From NCBI GenBank assembly GCA_036170915.1, contig JAVHQC010000033.1, forward strand, positions 96,001 to 160,000: 64,000 nucleotides of DNA. Reading direction: 5' to 3'. Shown here piece by piece: positions 1 through 64,000 of this stretch. The first letter of the stretch is position 1, and the number at the start of each line of letters is the position of its first letter. This DNA comes from Cyanobacteria bacterium auto_48_18 (GTDB lineage Bacteria > Cyanobacteriota > Vampirovibrionia > Obscuribacterales > Obscuribacteraceae). Position numbers: made by a program.

Positions 1-3000
1 GAAAAAACTTTTAGATGTCTTGAACGCTTTGCTTGACTTTTCAAAGCTGGAGTCAGGAAAAGTTGAAATAGAAAAAATTGCTTTTGATCCTCACCAGTTG
101 GTAAAGGATGCAGTTGCTTTAGCTGAGCCTAATGCAGTCAGTAAAGGCTTGAGGATAGAGACAAATGTCGATTTACCTAACAAGCTAATAGGCGATGAAA
201 GCAAAGTTCGACAGATCCTTTTGAACTTTCTGCACAATGCTGTGAAATTTACAAACGAAGGCACTGTAAGGGTCTCTGCGGTAATTGAGAAAGAATCGAA
301 GCCACACGCAATGGTTAGATTTTCTGTCTCCGATTCGGGTATTGGTATTAGAGAGAAAGACCAGACTGCTCTGTTTCAGCCCTTTGTTCAGGCTGATGGT
401 TCTACTCAGCGAAGATTTGGCGGCACCGGACTGGGATTGTCCATTGCAAAGCAATTTGTCGAATTGATGGAAGGCGAAATTGGTTTCGACAGCGAGGAAA
501 GTAAAGGCTCTGTTTTCTGGTTTTCTGTACCACTAGAGCTAGCTGAAGATGTCTAGCGTTCAAGATTCCAATTTAATTTTATTGGCAGATGATGACGATA
601 ATCTTCGCTATTTGACCATGCTTCAATTGAAGAAACTCGGTTATCCTTCTCATTACGCCCGGCACGGAAAAGAGGCTGTGAGCATGGTTGAGCGTTTTCC
701 TTATCAACTTATTCTCATGGATGTGATGATGCCTGAAATGGATGGCTGTGAGGCGGCCCGCGTTATTCGGAGCATTGAAATGCGCTTGGGCCGTGGGCCC
801 ACACCAATCATTGCCATGACTGCACTTCAAGACAAATCGATCTGTATTGAAGCCGGAATGGATGACTACCTGTTTAAGCCGATCTTGCTCGACGATTTAA
901 ATAAAAAACTTTCTCAGTGGTTGAACGTCACTTAAGATACCGCTGCTGCAAGCAAATGAAAGCGTTGAGAGCCACTGTTTGACATATTGGCATGGCACTG
1001 TATTTGGTGCCAAGTGGTTGCAAGGCTTCTTAGCAGTGAGCCGCACACTAATTGCCACAGCTGAGTTAACTGAGCTGGAGCAAAAATATTGAAAAGAGTA
1101 GCCAGTCTAACTCAGGTGCGGCCTCATTATTAAGCTCATTTGTTCTAGCGTGAACAGATAGGCAATAACTAAGTTTGCAAATGCAACTTTAATGCTGCAA
1201 AGTGCTTTCTCCATGTTCTGATAAGTTAATAACGTGTGGCGAATCGGGTAACCTTCGGAGGTCTTCCTGTGAAAATTCTGGCTATATTCGACGACCCCCA
1301 GATTGGTGCGATTGCCGCCCTGCGCAAACTTCAGCACACGGTGGAACTTGTGACGGATGTTCCGACTGCGATTGCTATCCTATATGATCGGCCGTATGAT
1401 GTGCTTTTGTGCCAAGCTGCGTTAGGGGGGCAGACACAAGCCACCATAAATCTGCTCGATACCATCAGGTCTAGCAGCCACCAAAGTGATCTTCCATTTG
1501 TATGTTGTCAAACAAGTGAAAAGGAACTTACCGAATCTGCCTTTGCTCATTTGCGTATGCGTGTAAATGCACTGGGTGGGCAAGGCTTAATCGATCATCG
1601 AGTTTTTCATTCTCGTAATCTGGTGCATGCAATTTCTAGGCAATTGTCTTCGGCCGTTGGTAGCCCTTGTCTTACTAGTTCGTGGCAGTGAAGGGCTTCT
1701 ATTTGTGATCGGAACTTGATCATTGTTAGCGCACGATCAGGTGCTACCTGCTATCAGCTTTTGAGTGAATAAAGAGATGGAATTTGATCCTGACAAAATC
1801 GAAAAGCTTACTTTGAAAGAAGCGGTCGAAGAAGTTCTGCAAGAAGCTCGAATGGTTTTGCCCGGCGTTCAAGCTTTGTTTGGATTTCAGCTAATTGCTT
1901 TCTTTAACAGCACTTATGCCGACCTTAGTGCAACCAGTAAGCTTTTACATTTGATAGCAGTCGGCCTGACGATTATTTCGATTGGGCTACTTATGGCTCC
2001 AGCTGCATATCACCGCCAGGTTGAGCGACAGACAGTTTCAAAGAATCTTGTGTGCTATGCCACTTCTCTAATCACGATTGGCATGGCTCCGCTTGCGGCT
2101 TCTATAAGCCTTGAAGTCTATGTGGTCACCAGGCTTGCTCTAAACAATTCAACAGTCAGCATTATTGCCGCTTTAAGTGCGGCGATTTTCTTAGCCATCT
2201 TCTGGTATTTTTTACCGCAATATTTTAAGAGATCGCGTGAAAAAGCTATCAATACAGCCGAAGCGATATCGGGGTGATGTAGGCTGCTCGCCACAGGTTC
2301 ACTTTCAATTTGAATGCTTGTATAGTGGCTTTCTACTTCTATTCTGTGGGCTTCACTTGCCAAGCGCGACGCGATCTGCATTTCTATCAGCGATTTTGGT
2401 CATCTTTGTTTGTGCCTATGCTCCTGGTAACAGGGCAGCTACCTCCAAGCCAGATCAAGCGGTTGGCGATTCATATGGTTTTAGAAAAATTGCGAAGCGC
2501 CAAGTAAGCAGCACTGGTTTGACGCCAGACACACAGGCCCTGGCTAAGCTACTACAGATTGAAGACTCTCTTGCATCTTTAAAGAAGCTTGTTGCTGACT
2601 CGGGTGACAACCCCTCTGATTCACAGCTTGTGAGAATCATGTATCTGCGTCAAAAGTGCGAGCGGGCAACACAGTTTGCTTCTCTCGAGCTCGAAGAAGC
2701 TCTGGCAAATATTGAAAGCGATCTCAGTTACTCGAGTATGGAGTATTCACTTTTTTCTTCAAAGTACGAACGCTCACTGGCTCTGAATAATGCCGCAACT
2801 TTTCTGACCTCAGGTACCTTAGGTGTACTAGATTCGGCATCAGGCCTGAAGTATGCCGCACCAGTTCCCAATATATTTGGAATTACCGGTAATGCCGCTG
2901 CTGTAGCCATTCCGTTATGGGGCCTGCGACCACGAAAATACAGTCCATTGCAAAAAGAAAATGGCGGCAACATGCTCGCTCCAATCTTTAATTTGAAGTA

Positions 3001-63000: not shown

Positions 63001-64000
63001 AAGGGTATGGAAATAATTGGAGTCGAAACCATATCTGAAGCATTGCAAAAAGCTATGCCCAACTTGAATTTTGTCAAAAAACCCGACAGCACTGAACGAG
63101 CACCTGGAAGCCGAGCCGAAAATTTAGAAGATGAAAGCGTATTCTCCATCTGAGCAGCTAGTTAAACAACTAGCGGGGTTGCCTGACAGCCCCGGTTGCT
63201 ACATTTTTAAAGACAATCTCGGCGATATTCTCTACATCGGTAAAGCCTTGAGCCTGCGTTCGCGCGTGCGCTCTTACTGGACCGATATCTCGTGGCGCGA
63301 TCGTCCTAAGCTCGCAGTAATGATGCCAAAGGTTTCATTGATTGAAACCATTTTGACTAATTCTGAAAAAGAAGCGTTGCTCTTAGAAGCCAATTTAATT
63401 CGGCAGAAACTTCCTCGCTACAATGTTTCGCTTAAAGACGATAGACGATATCCGTGGCTTGCCATCACATATGATGTCGCTTATCCACGTCTTGTAATGT
63501 GTCGCGATCCGGTTCGTTTTAAAAAAGATAATCCGCGCGCCAAAGTTTTTGGACCTTACGTAGAAGCCGGTCAGATGTGGGAAACCATGCGCATTTTGCG
63601 TCGCGTTTTTCCTATGCGGCAGCGCAAAACACCGTTATTTAAAGATCGTCCCTGCATGAATTTTCACATCGGCTTGTGCCTGGCACCATGTCAAAAAATG
63701 GTTGAGGTCGCCTCCTATGATCATATGGTCAAACAGGTAGAAATGTTTCTGGCTGGTCGCCAAACTGAAGTAATGGATCAACTCAAAGCTGAGATGGACA
63801 CAGCCAGCGAGAATCTTGAATTTGAACAAGCGGGAAAAATCAGAGATCGACTGGTGGCATTGCGTACAGTCATAGAAAAACAGCAGGTATTTTTCCAGAG
63901 CAATAAAATTAGCCATGACATTGTTGCTGAAGCGCACACTGAAAAAATGATGTCTGTGTGCTTGATGAAAGTACGAGAAGGGAAACTGATTGCCTCTGAA

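Follow-up and report, generated by a model that had tools for sequence, protein, structure and literature searches.

Two dense clusters of tRNA genes on contig C33 of Cyanobacteria bacterium auto_48_18 are probably the separated halves of one resident, vertically kept and supernumerary L-array, with the same promoter-like element before each half, a working type I (armless) tRNA-Leu(UAG) and a probable role as a tRNA reserve. The host is a member of Obscuribacteraceae (Vampirovibrionia), and its assembly (G000) gave no match to the photosystem families PF00223 and PF00124. The window analyzed here, a stretch of 64,000 nucleotides (C33:96001-160000), contains no tRNA gene, as both arrays are located outside it: array 1 ends 79,543 bases before window position 1 and array 2 begins 4,122 bases after window position 64000.

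Arrangement and surroundings of the arrays

A total of 59 tRNA genes were detected in the whole assembly by ARAGORN, nine of which are located in array 1 (C33:15652-16458, minus strand) and nine in array 2 (C33:164122-165603, plus strand). Rfam adds three array tRNAs missed by ARAGORN, which brings the totals to 10 and 11; the two dense arrays reported in the survey's finding are therefore real, but they hold 21 genes rather than 20, Ser UGA being among the additions. In the order of transcription, array 1 consists of Pro UGG, Asn GUU, Ser UGA, Gln UUG, His GUG, Cys GCA, Leu UAG, Trp CCA, Ser GCU, and Phe GAA. The Ser UGA gene (16204-16288, minus strand) has an Rfam score of 34.7 bits and is read by ARAGORN as a class II tRNA-Ser(UGA) when the threshold is lowered, and the Leu UAG gene (C33:15888-15964, minus strand) comprises 74 nt plus CCA. 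Array 2 consists of Gly UCC, a Thr UGU-like gene, Arg UCU, Lys CUU, Val UAC, Asn GUU, Met CAU, Ile GAU, Leu UAA, Leu CAA, and Tyr GUA. Its Thr-like gene (164391-164466, plus strand; 164391-164463 in Rfam, 40.9 bits) has UGU as its anticodon and a T loop of 8 nt that is degenerate, and the Leu UAA (165276-165347, plus strand; Rfam 39.9 bits) and Leu CAA (165351-165422, plus strand; 47.6 bits) genes are both 72 nt long and armless. Long arms are retained in Ser GCU, Ser UGA, and Tyr of the arrays.

The density amounts to 10 genes in 0.81 kb in array 1 and 11 genes in 1.48 kb in array 2, and each array runs on one strand throughout without any repeated unit in the ARAGORN and Rfam predictions. 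In the 86%-complete G000 assembly, Val UAC and Ser UGA were found by ARAGORN and Rfam only inside the arrays (it had been proposed that Val UAC is the sole such case), and an Asp GUC gene was not found anywhere in this incomplete assembly by ARAGORN. A genome of the same genus that is 97% complete and consists of one contig (G081) has scattered copies of both Val UAC and Asp GUC, and none of its 17 array anticodon types is confined to the array. These observations support the view that the arrays are supernumerary and duplicate the housekeeping set rather than extend it, as had been suggested.

The array tRNAs score lower than most others, also in agreement with the earlier description: Rfam scores range from 34.7 to 67.2 bits, compared to 60-73 bits for most scattered class I tRNAs, and seven of the 21 have non-canonical T loops. 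Both features would be expected if the arrays were unexpressed, decaying remains of a cluster that was acquired horizontally long ago, and if the armless tRNA-Leu genes were pseudogenes that are still recognized by ARAGORN and Rfam, a reading that is considered quite unlikely in view of the conservation described in the following sections.

The DNA between the arrays is ordinary housekeeping chromosome. Genes of the window (positions 1 to 64000) include those for a Mur ligase, ribosomal protein L21, Mfd/TRCF, the tRNA thiolase MnmA, PRPP synthetase, a ribosome hibernation factor, Lgt, and a RadA-like protein, and no integrase, transposase, or phage family was seen in the Pfam matches of 60 ORFs, which together cover 92% of the window. 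The arrays themselves are flanked by uvrC, radA-like, Crp, MgsA, sulfatase, and similar genes; among the Pfam matches of ORFs up to about 6 kb away from the arrays there was no integrase, transposase, or phage family and, although no search was aimed at it, no HNH endonuclease family, and neither these regions nor the window contained phage or defence genes. The idea that the 148 kb between the arrays form a mobile island with an array at each end was rejected, considering the housekeeping content of the window and the arrangement in G081, where the arrays are 303 kb apart on the same strand. A chloramphenicol-phosphotransferase-like gene and a MarR-GNAT gene are divergent from array 1 and array 2, respectively; a link to antibiotic stress was considered and rejected, and these neighbors are regarded as incidental because G020, the closest genome, is the only one that shares the two flanks.

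Common origin, turnover, and the shared promoter

A genome of a sister genus (G056) has a single unsplit array of 18 tRNAs (Met, Gly, Ala, Thr, Lys, Arg, Arg, Val, Asn, Ser UGA, Ile, Gln, His, Cys, Leu CAA, Leu UAG, Trp, and Ser GCU), which shows blastn matches to both arrays of G000 in the same order. This supports the earlier proposal of a split array, in that the two C33 arrays appear to be halves of one long L-array lineage. Of 101 family genomes, 58 contain array 1 DNA and 51 contain array 2 DNA (E<=0.001), a far wider spread than the nine of 40 genomes first reported for parts of array 2. In addition, a strict armless-Leu pattern was found in 36 of 104 genomes, representing 11 of 37 genera, and a reversed-pattern control gave no match. 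No report of such arrays in Obscuribacteraceae (Vampirovibrionia) was found in the literature, and blastn searches of array 1 against plasmids and phages yielded only single-tRNA matches.

L-arrays have been described by Santamaria-Gomez et al. (2021, PMC8421152) as long, non-periodic runs of supernumerary tRNA genes in one orientation with a patchy distribution, whose patchiness among related species was taken in that article as a sign of horizontal spread. The runs on C33 are likewise non-periodic and one-stranded, duplicate the housekeeping set (as judged by the 0 of 17 in G081), and occur patchily among the 101 genomes. The array units defined by Tran et al. (2016, PMC4758250), with at least 20 tRNA genes at a density of at least two per kb, share with them the high density and, outside Firmicutes, the patchy distribution; however, with 10 and 11 genes the individual loci fall below that minimum, which is approached only by the two C33 loci together or by the unsplit array of G056.

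Gene content and context have changed considerably among kin. Ser UGA, Cys, and Ser GCU are absent from most kin arrays, even within one genus, and the flanking genes, shared only with G020, differ in other kin, which implies turnover. Even in G020 the Ile-UAA-CAA segment of array 2 is missing. Two kin loci (L028 and L034) have an Asn gene with a deleted anticodon arm that is miscalled as Leu(UAA), and this damage, as well as the loss of members in kin, is in line with the relic reading.

What argues against that reading at this point is the conservation upstream of the arrays. The same 38-nt promoter-like element precedes both of them and is present in exactly two copies in the 4.94 Mb genome, both of which are called by a promoter scan. 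The array 1 copy (C33:16651-16688, minus strand) lies about 190 nt before the Pro gene and consists of TTTGCA, a 17-nt spacer, and TATATT, with a TG before the second hexamer; the array 2 copy (C33:164080-164117, plus strand) ends 4 nt before the Gly gene. Across nine loci of genus kin, the -35 and -10 hexamers are conserved and the spacer is variable. With one sigma-70-type promoter in a copy before each half, both halves would probably be switched together. TrcR is the repressor of the trn operon of Anabaena (PMC10272220), and its published site has only a loose resemblance to the promoter spacer found here.

A history consistent with these data is that one long L-array became resident and was vertically kept on the chromosome in a genus of Obscuribacteraceae, where it may subsequently have separated into two halves. 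The tRNAs of each half would then be cut from a polycistronic precursor.

Structure, conservation, and charging of the armless tRNA-Leu

Type I tRNA-Leu is recognized by a Leu anticodon together with a variable loop of 4-5 nt that lacks an extra helix. The earlier observation of armless Leu tRNAs is confirmed for UAG, CAA, and UAA at the lengths given above, as each of the three carries A73 and a variable loop of 5 nt; the scattered tRNA-Leu of this genome, five in number, measure 83-85 nt. The array Leu(UAG) combines the 5-nt loop with a 3-bp D stem, an 11-nt Leu-type D loop, A73, and A37, and its D-arm layout is that of the genome's own long-armed tRNA-Leu(UAG). Position 37 is G in the housekeeping Leu(UAG), and the decoding of the array tRNA may therefore differ from that of its housekeeping counterpart.

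A comparison of 15 distinct family sequences of Leu(UAG) from at least six genera, aligned over 74 columns without gaps, revealed 98.3% paired cells and compensatory (both-side) changes in 17 of 20 stem pairs; none of 500 shuffles reached the observed values, and slid controls were 23-52% paired. Such changes occur in all four stems and across genera, and identity within the genus is 92-97%. The positions that are invariant in all 15 sequences include U8, A14, A15, G18, A20a, U48, U54, U55, C56, A58, and A73, and G19 is present in 14. Accordingly, the array Leu(UAG) is kept under purifying selection, as far as can be read from this alignment, which is difficult to reconcile with a silent relic.

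The other members with unusual loops are in a different condition. Leu UAA of G000 has a D loop that is 2 nt short and lacks GG, and its T loop is CTCATGC, so that it has probably decayed; Leu CAA has a similarly shortened D loop and the T loop TTCGCGC without A58, and is probably weak or decayed. As originally noted, neither has a match in genus kin, although homologous armless CAA and UAA genes occur in other genera. The D- or T-loop damage in these two genes and in the Thr-like gene would suit the relic reading, and all three are probably decaying in G000, within an array that otherwise persists. Random decay does not account for many of the odd T loops, however, because they covary with the D loop: among 36 tRNAs without GG, 33 have G at position 55. 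The preferred reading is that of a maintained array with a few failing members.

The genome encodes one LeuRS, on contig C14, in an open frame of 853 aa. According to a passage of a review (PMC9976931), the identity set of the E. coli enzyme comprises A73, A14, A15:U48, G18 and G19, A20a, U54:A58, G18:U55, and G19:C56, all of which are present in the array Leu(UAG) (15 of 15 sequences; G19 in 14 of 15). In G000, elements of this set are missing from CAA (no GG, no A58) and from UAA (no GG, altered T loop). Because the Leu-type D arm and elbow are retained despite the loss of the arm, Leu(UAG) is likely to be charged by the single LeuRS of the cell, and it would thus be a working type I tRNA-Leu. 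It had been proposed that such tRNAs are either charged through A73 alone or mischarged; charging by LeuRS is plausible, but the full D-loop and T-loop set has been kept in addition to A73, and mischarging found no support.

It is highly improbable that the armless Leu-anticodon tRNAs carry an amino acid other than leucine and cause conditional recoding or mistranslation of CUN and UUR codons. LeuRS, AlaRS, and SerRS ignore the anticodon, as stated in PMC11028032, so that naming by anticodon can mislead, and possible misacylation has been discussed for two operonic tRNAs of Anabaena, Phe and Ile, in passages of PMC8421152. However, the Leu-type D arm and A73 are invariant, the 3:70 pair is C-G or G-C and never G3:U70 in the 15 sequences, and there is no long arm that SerRS could recognize. 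Moreover, in 59 of 80 genome stretches with flanks, mostly from Actinomycetota, a gene of this architecture stands alone as the single Leu(UAA) or Leu(CAA) gene, and there it must read leucine codons as leucine.

Returning to leucine charging, there is precedent in Streptomyces coelicolor, in which a type I tRNA-Leu(CAA) is charged by the single ScoLeuRS (Fan et al. 2019, PMC6614811). The S. coelicolor tRNA shares with the array gene the 5-nt variable loop, a Leu anticodon, the presence of long-armed tRNA-Leu alongside, and a single LeuRS, and the D-arm layout of the array gene matches that of stand-alone Leu genes of other Actinomycetota. On the other hand, the Streptomyces gene is a stand-alone housekeeping gene and not an array member, and passages of the same article indicate that A73, invariant here, is not an identity element in Streptomyces, and that ScoLeuRS exceeds other bacterial LeuRS in length and employs its leucine-specific domain when acting on the type I tRNA. 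They also report that type I tRNA-Leu of Streptomyces is uncharged by E. coli LeuRS and by one Streptomyces LeuRS, and charging by an enzyme of standard length such as the 853-aa LeuRS therefore cannot be assumed. In Anabaena, 23 of 26 tRNAs of the trn operon are aminoacylated in vivo according to passages of PMC8421152, and all four Leu genes of this operon are armless, from which it follows that at least one armless tRNA-Leu is charged there.

Known relatives and possible role

Armless tRNA-Leu and tRNA arrays are already known kinds in other bacteria and phages. The suggestion that bacterial class I tRNA-Leu is new cannot be upheld in the light of the Streptomyces gene published in 2019, the Anabaena operon, the single genes of many Actinomycetota, and phage arrays. 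Similarly, the statement in a passage of PMC9976931 that tRNA-Leu is long-armed everywhere except in animal mitochondria is too strong.

The closest parallel is the trn operon on plasmid delta of Anabaena/Nostoc sp. PCC 7120, a cluster first described (as cited in later work) in 2012 by Puerto-Galan and Vioque, which is likewise a dense, one-strand run of supernumerary tRNAs in the account of Santamaria-Gomez et al. (2021, PMC8421152). By ARAGORN, its armless Leu genes are UAA (75 nt), GAG (78 nt), UAG (75 nt), and CAA (78 nt), and Ser GCU and Tyr are long-armed as in Obscuribacteraceae; the main text and supplement of PMC8421152 do not contain the wording 'variable arm'. Among outside sequences, the array Leu(CAA) of Obscuribacteraceae is most similar to the operonic Leu(CAA) of Anabaena (83.8% over 74 nt), and the UAA gene comes closest to armless Leu(UAA) genes from Actinomycetota. 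In contrast to Anabaena, the arrays here are chromosomal, occupy two loci with duplicated promoters, and differ in the order and identity of their genes (Trp and Cys are included, Glu is lacking, and neither Asp nor Ala occurs in the arrays of G000), and blastn similarity is limited to single tRNAs.

Large phages are the second source of comparison. In IMG/VR, a tRNA was present at the match in at least 125 stretches of phage contigs (125 of 130), and five or more tRNAs were counted in 61 of the 80 that had flanks; armless Leu(UAG), Leu(CAA), and Leu(UAA) of 73-77 nt occur within these clusters, and some share the altered elbow. It is possible, though unlikely, that the arrays are retained phage-type cargo for counter-defence or repair, in which altered tRNAs replace housekeeping tRNAs or escape anticodon nucleases and tRNA-targeting toxins, instead of forming a general stress reserve. 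The frequency of armless Leu and the altered elbow in viral arrays would fit such an origin, as would the position of one kin array (G007) beside a TROVE/Ro60-like gene and the description of mycobacterial arrays as a putative anti-defence system in PMC12803027. Nevertheless, no phage or defence genes surround the arrays, no nuclease partner was identified, and the array is chromosomal and conserved genus-wide behind a host-type promoter. A counter-defence role and a stress reserve are not mutually exclusive.

A reserve of tRNAs is the preferred reading of function, and it is drawn by analogy with the Anabaena trn operon only. L-arrays are described in PMC8421152 as inactive under standard growth conditions and induced when translation is under stress. 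The array would probably supply tRNAs when translation or the tRNA pool is damaged, with the qualification that the model was built on a cyanobacterium in which the array genes are ordered differently and show at most single-tRNA similarity.

A bolder proposal, regarded as rather unlikely, is that armless tRNA-Leu, the A18/G55-type elbow, and A37 together mark a distinct, horizontally travelling lineage of 'array tRNAs' in phages, cyanobacterial L-arrays, and Obscuribacteraceae, with shapes selected to escape tRNA-targeting nucleases or modification-dependent checkpoints, which would have been domesticated in Obscuribacteraceae under a twin-promoter regulon. If this were true, the missing arm would be a functional adaptation and not a tolerated loss.

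These findings extend L-arrays to the non-photosynthetic sister lineage of cyanobacteria. They also provide a clean comparison, in which a selected armless tRNA-Leu stands beside five long-armed ones and one LeuRS of ordinary length, so that the question of whether a standard bacterial LeuRS can charge type I tRNA-Leu becomes directly testable.

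Composition and supernumerary status of the tRNA arrays

The assembly of Cyanobacteria bacterium auto_48_18 (G000; 4.94 Mb in 39 contigs, 86% complete) contains 59 tRNA genes according to ARAGORN. No tRNA gene was found within the window (C33:96001-160000), and the two arrays are located elsewhere on contig C33 (JAVHQC010000033.1): array 1 on the minus strand at C33:15652-16458 and array 2 on the plus strand at C33:164122-165603, with nine ARAGORN genes each. Besides the whole genome, the analysis covered two stretches around them, L001 (C33:9001-23000) and L002 (C33:158001-172000). 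Rfam added a long-armed tRNA-Ser(UGA) (C33:16204-16288, minus strand; 34.7 bits; also called by ARAGORN at a lowered threshold), a Thr-like tRNA (anticodon UGU) whose 8-nt T loop is non-canonical (C33:164391-164463; 40.9 bits), and a tRNA with anticodon UAA (C33:165276-165347; 39.9 bits), and the arrays therefore comprise 10 and 11 genes, respectively. The survey's finding of two dense arrays was thus confirmed, with 21 members by ARAGORN and Rfam rather than 20. As also claimed there, array members mostly score lower than scattered genes (34.7-67.2 Rfam bits versus about 60-73 for most scattered class I tRNAs); the canonical GTTCRA-type T loop is missing in 7 of the 21. All three Leu-anticodon members have A73 and a 5-nt variable loop, whereas each of the five tRNA-Leu scattered over the genome is 83-85 nt long, in agreement with the reported lack of the long arm (type I, or armless, tRNA-Leu). 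Long arms are retained by the array Ser(GCU), Ser(UGA), and Tyr tRNAs.

The arrays had been described as duplicating housekeeping anticodons. This holds in the complete same-genus genome G081, in which all 17 array anticodon types also occur among the 40 scattered tRNAs examined, which include Val(UAC) and Asp(GUC) as well, but not in G000 for Val(UAC) and Ser(UGA), which are array-only; an Asp(GUC) gene is absent from the whole 86%-complete assembly. Since G081 has scattered copies of all array anticodons, array-only status in G000 is probably an effect of incomplete assembly. NCBI places the family Obscuribacteraceae in Obscuribacterales/Melainabacteria, consistent with the host taxon assigned earlier, and the 86%-complete genome yielded no match to the photosystem families PF00223 and PF00124, while a control Synechococcus genome scored. 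A literature search returned no paper joining Melainabacteria, Obscuribacter, or Vampirovibrionia with tRNA arrays.

One array in two pieces and its putative promoter

DNA of array 1 was matched in 58 and that of array 2 in 51 of 101 family genomes (E<=0.001). G056, from a sister genus (g13), has a single unbroken run of 18 tRNAs (Met, Gly, Ala, Thr, Lys, Arg, Arg, Val, Asn, Ser UGA, Ile, Gln, His, Cys, Leu CAA, Leu UAG, Trp, Ser GCU), whose members match both G000 arrays in the same order; G078 is similar. Judged from this comparison, which supports the proposed split L-array (a long one-strand run of supernumerary tRNA genes), the two arrays appear to be one array in two pieces, the split form being found in the window's genus. 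The halves are separated by 303 kb in G081, where they share a strand, and by 148 kb in G000, where they are on opposite strands. No mobile-element families were detected among the window's 64 kb between the arrays, which is housekeeping chromosome, and nothing unusual was seen among the ORFs up to about 6 kb from either array. Genes in the window between the arrays include those for a long-form ribosome hibernation factor (S30AE plus C-terminal domain; window:49995-50585, plus strand) and the tRNA 2-thiouridylase MnmA (window:33174-34322, plus strand); both belong to the ordinary housekeeping set and show no obvious connection with the arrays.

Array flanks are common to G000 and its closest genome, G020, only, other kin being different, and array members have been gained and lost within the genus. 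In the array 2 homologues of G081 (L028) and G074 (L034), a 73-nt 'Leu(taa)' called by ARAGORN is in fact a tRNA-Asn whose anticodon arm has been shortened, and kin carry a 76-nt Asn(gtt) at this place; this gene shows both that decay occurs among array members and that naming tRNAs by their anticodon can be misleading.

A 38-nt element (TTTGCA, 17-nt spacer, TATATT, the second hexamer being preceded by TG) was found upstream of both arrays and nowhere else in the genome. Its two copies are identical at 35 of 38 positions and were both called by a promoter consensus scan. Upstream of array 1 homologues (nine genus-kin loci), the two hexamers are conserved and the spacer is variable, as would be expected if the promoter is genuine. 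The shared putative promoter suggests that the two halves may be co-regulated.

Several neighbouring genes were also observed. A chloramphenicol-phosphotransferase-like gene (L001:7733-8356, plus strand, i.e., C33:16733-17356; PF07931, E 5.8e-44) is divergent from array 1 beyond the shared element, an adjacency kept only in G020. A MarR-GNAT acetyltransferase fusion gene (L002:4999-6003, minus strand, i.e., C33:162999-164003) is divergent from array 2; it is common to G020 only, where it is apparently split into two frames. In G007, from another family genus, a TROVE/Ro60-like ORF (L171:2430-2999 on G007:C303; PF05731, E 2.8e-10) adjoins a tRNA array, a possible link to RNA quality control.

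Armless leucine tRNAs in the family and elsewhere

Array Leu(UAG) (C33:15888-15964) occurs in 15 distinct versions from at least six family genera, aligned over 74 columns without gaps. When a cloverleaf was imposed, 98.3% of cells were paired and both-side changes were present in 17 of 20 pairs; none of 500 shuffles reached these values, and slid partners paired at 23-52%. The D arm (3-bp stem, 11-nt loop) has the same layout as that of the long-armed tRNA-Leu(UAG) of G000. The anticodon loop is CTTAGAA in all 15 versions, with invariant A37, whereas the housekeeping Leu(UAG) (C34:4434-4518, on another contig) has G37, the usual m1G37 position, presumably methylated. Invariant positions include U8, A14, A15, G18, A20a, U48, U54, U55, C56, A58, and A73 (G19 in 14 of 15), the elements by which E. 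coli LeuRS is described as identifying its tRNA, the long arm not being required (PMC9976931). Only one LeuRS (853-aa frame) is encoded in G000. Given the kept identity positions, the Leu-type D arm, and the single LeuRS, charging of array Leu(UAG) by LeuRS would thus be the most economical reading. E. coli LeuRS is reported to fail to charge Streptomyces type I tRNA-Leu (Fan et al. 2019, PMC6614811).

The picture differs for the CAA and UAA members. In G000, each has a D loop that falls 2 nt short of that of its family homologues and no longer contains the GG pair, and their T loops (TTCGCGC in CAA; CTCATGC in UAA, the odd loop remarked on before) lack A58 or TTC; the segment is absent from G020. 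The CAA, UAA, and Thr-like genes of G000 are read as probably decaying. Armless CAA and UAA genes that look intact are present in G013, G056, and G007, two of them placed one base off by ARAGORN as judged by eye.

Bacterial class-I tRNA-Leu had been proposed as new, which is not the case: a type I tRNA-Leu(CAA) charged by the one LeuRS of Streptomyces coelicolor is published (Fan et al. 2019, PMC6614811, the only paper in which our literature search met the phrase 'type I tRNALeu'), and such tRNAs also occur in the Nostoc trn operon, Actinomycetota, and phages. In the trn operon on plasmid delta of Nostoc (Anabaena) sp. PCC 7120, all four Leu genes were armless in our ARAGORN analysis; 23 of its 26 tRNAs are reported to be aminoacylated in vivo (PMC8421152), and the main text and supplement of that paper do not mention the variable arm.

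A strict pattern (Leu-type D loop, NAR anticodon, short variable region, T loop) was found in 36 of 104 family genomes and 11 of 37 genera, with none for a reversed-pattern control. It matched at least 121 stretches in GTDB species genomes (short Leu tRNA at the match in 119 of those listed) and at least 130 in IMG/VR (tRNA at the match in 125 of those listed). Among 80 listed genome stretches with flanks, the gene stands alone in 59, mostly from Actinomycetota, and sits among at least five tRNAs in 11, these being, among the matches listed, from Cyanobacteria, Acidobacteriota, Planctomycetota, Proteobacteria, Firmicutes, and others; 61 of 80 listed viral stretches with flanks contain at least five tRNAs.

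A single stand-alone armless tRNA-Leu (UAA, CAA, or UAG; 74-76 nt without CCA) was observed in many Actinomycetota (L045-L165), among the matches listed in Nocardia, Rhodococcus, Gordonia, Mycobacterium, Corynebacterium, Arthrobacter, Bifidobacterium, and Rothia, with a D arm nearly the same as in array genes. These genes contradict a review according to which all tRNA-Leu except those of animal mitochondria have the long arm (PMC9976931).

Altered elbow and possible function

In some array tRNAs, such as Cys (C33:15966-16041), His (C33:16045-16120), and Met (C33:164822-164895), the D and T loops co-vary. Among distinct tRNAs from Obscuribacteraceae array loci (L004-L042, L169-L184), a T loop beginning N-G-C (G at position 55) was present in 33 of 36 without the D-loop GG versus 7 of 275 with it; the corresponding numbers for viral arrays were 14/37 and 3/672. 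Of the 15 versions of array tRNA-Cys, 14 carry TGCAA. None of the 40 scattered G081 tRNAs has this altered elbow.

The Anabaena trn operon is induced by ribosome-targeting antibiotics and helps survival (PMC8421152), and is repressed by TrcR (PMC10272220). It differs from the G000 arrays in gene order, similarity being confined to single tRNAs (best match Leu(CAA), 83.8% over 74 nt). By analogy with Anabaena, the Obscuribacteraceae arrays may serve as a stress reserve; counter-defence, which has been suggested for the arrays of phages and mycobacteria, would be a less probable role. Both tRNA arrays and armless leucine tRNAs are already known kinds, and the sequences point to a real and well conserved L-array in G000, in a new host family, with a functional-looking type I tRNA-Leu.
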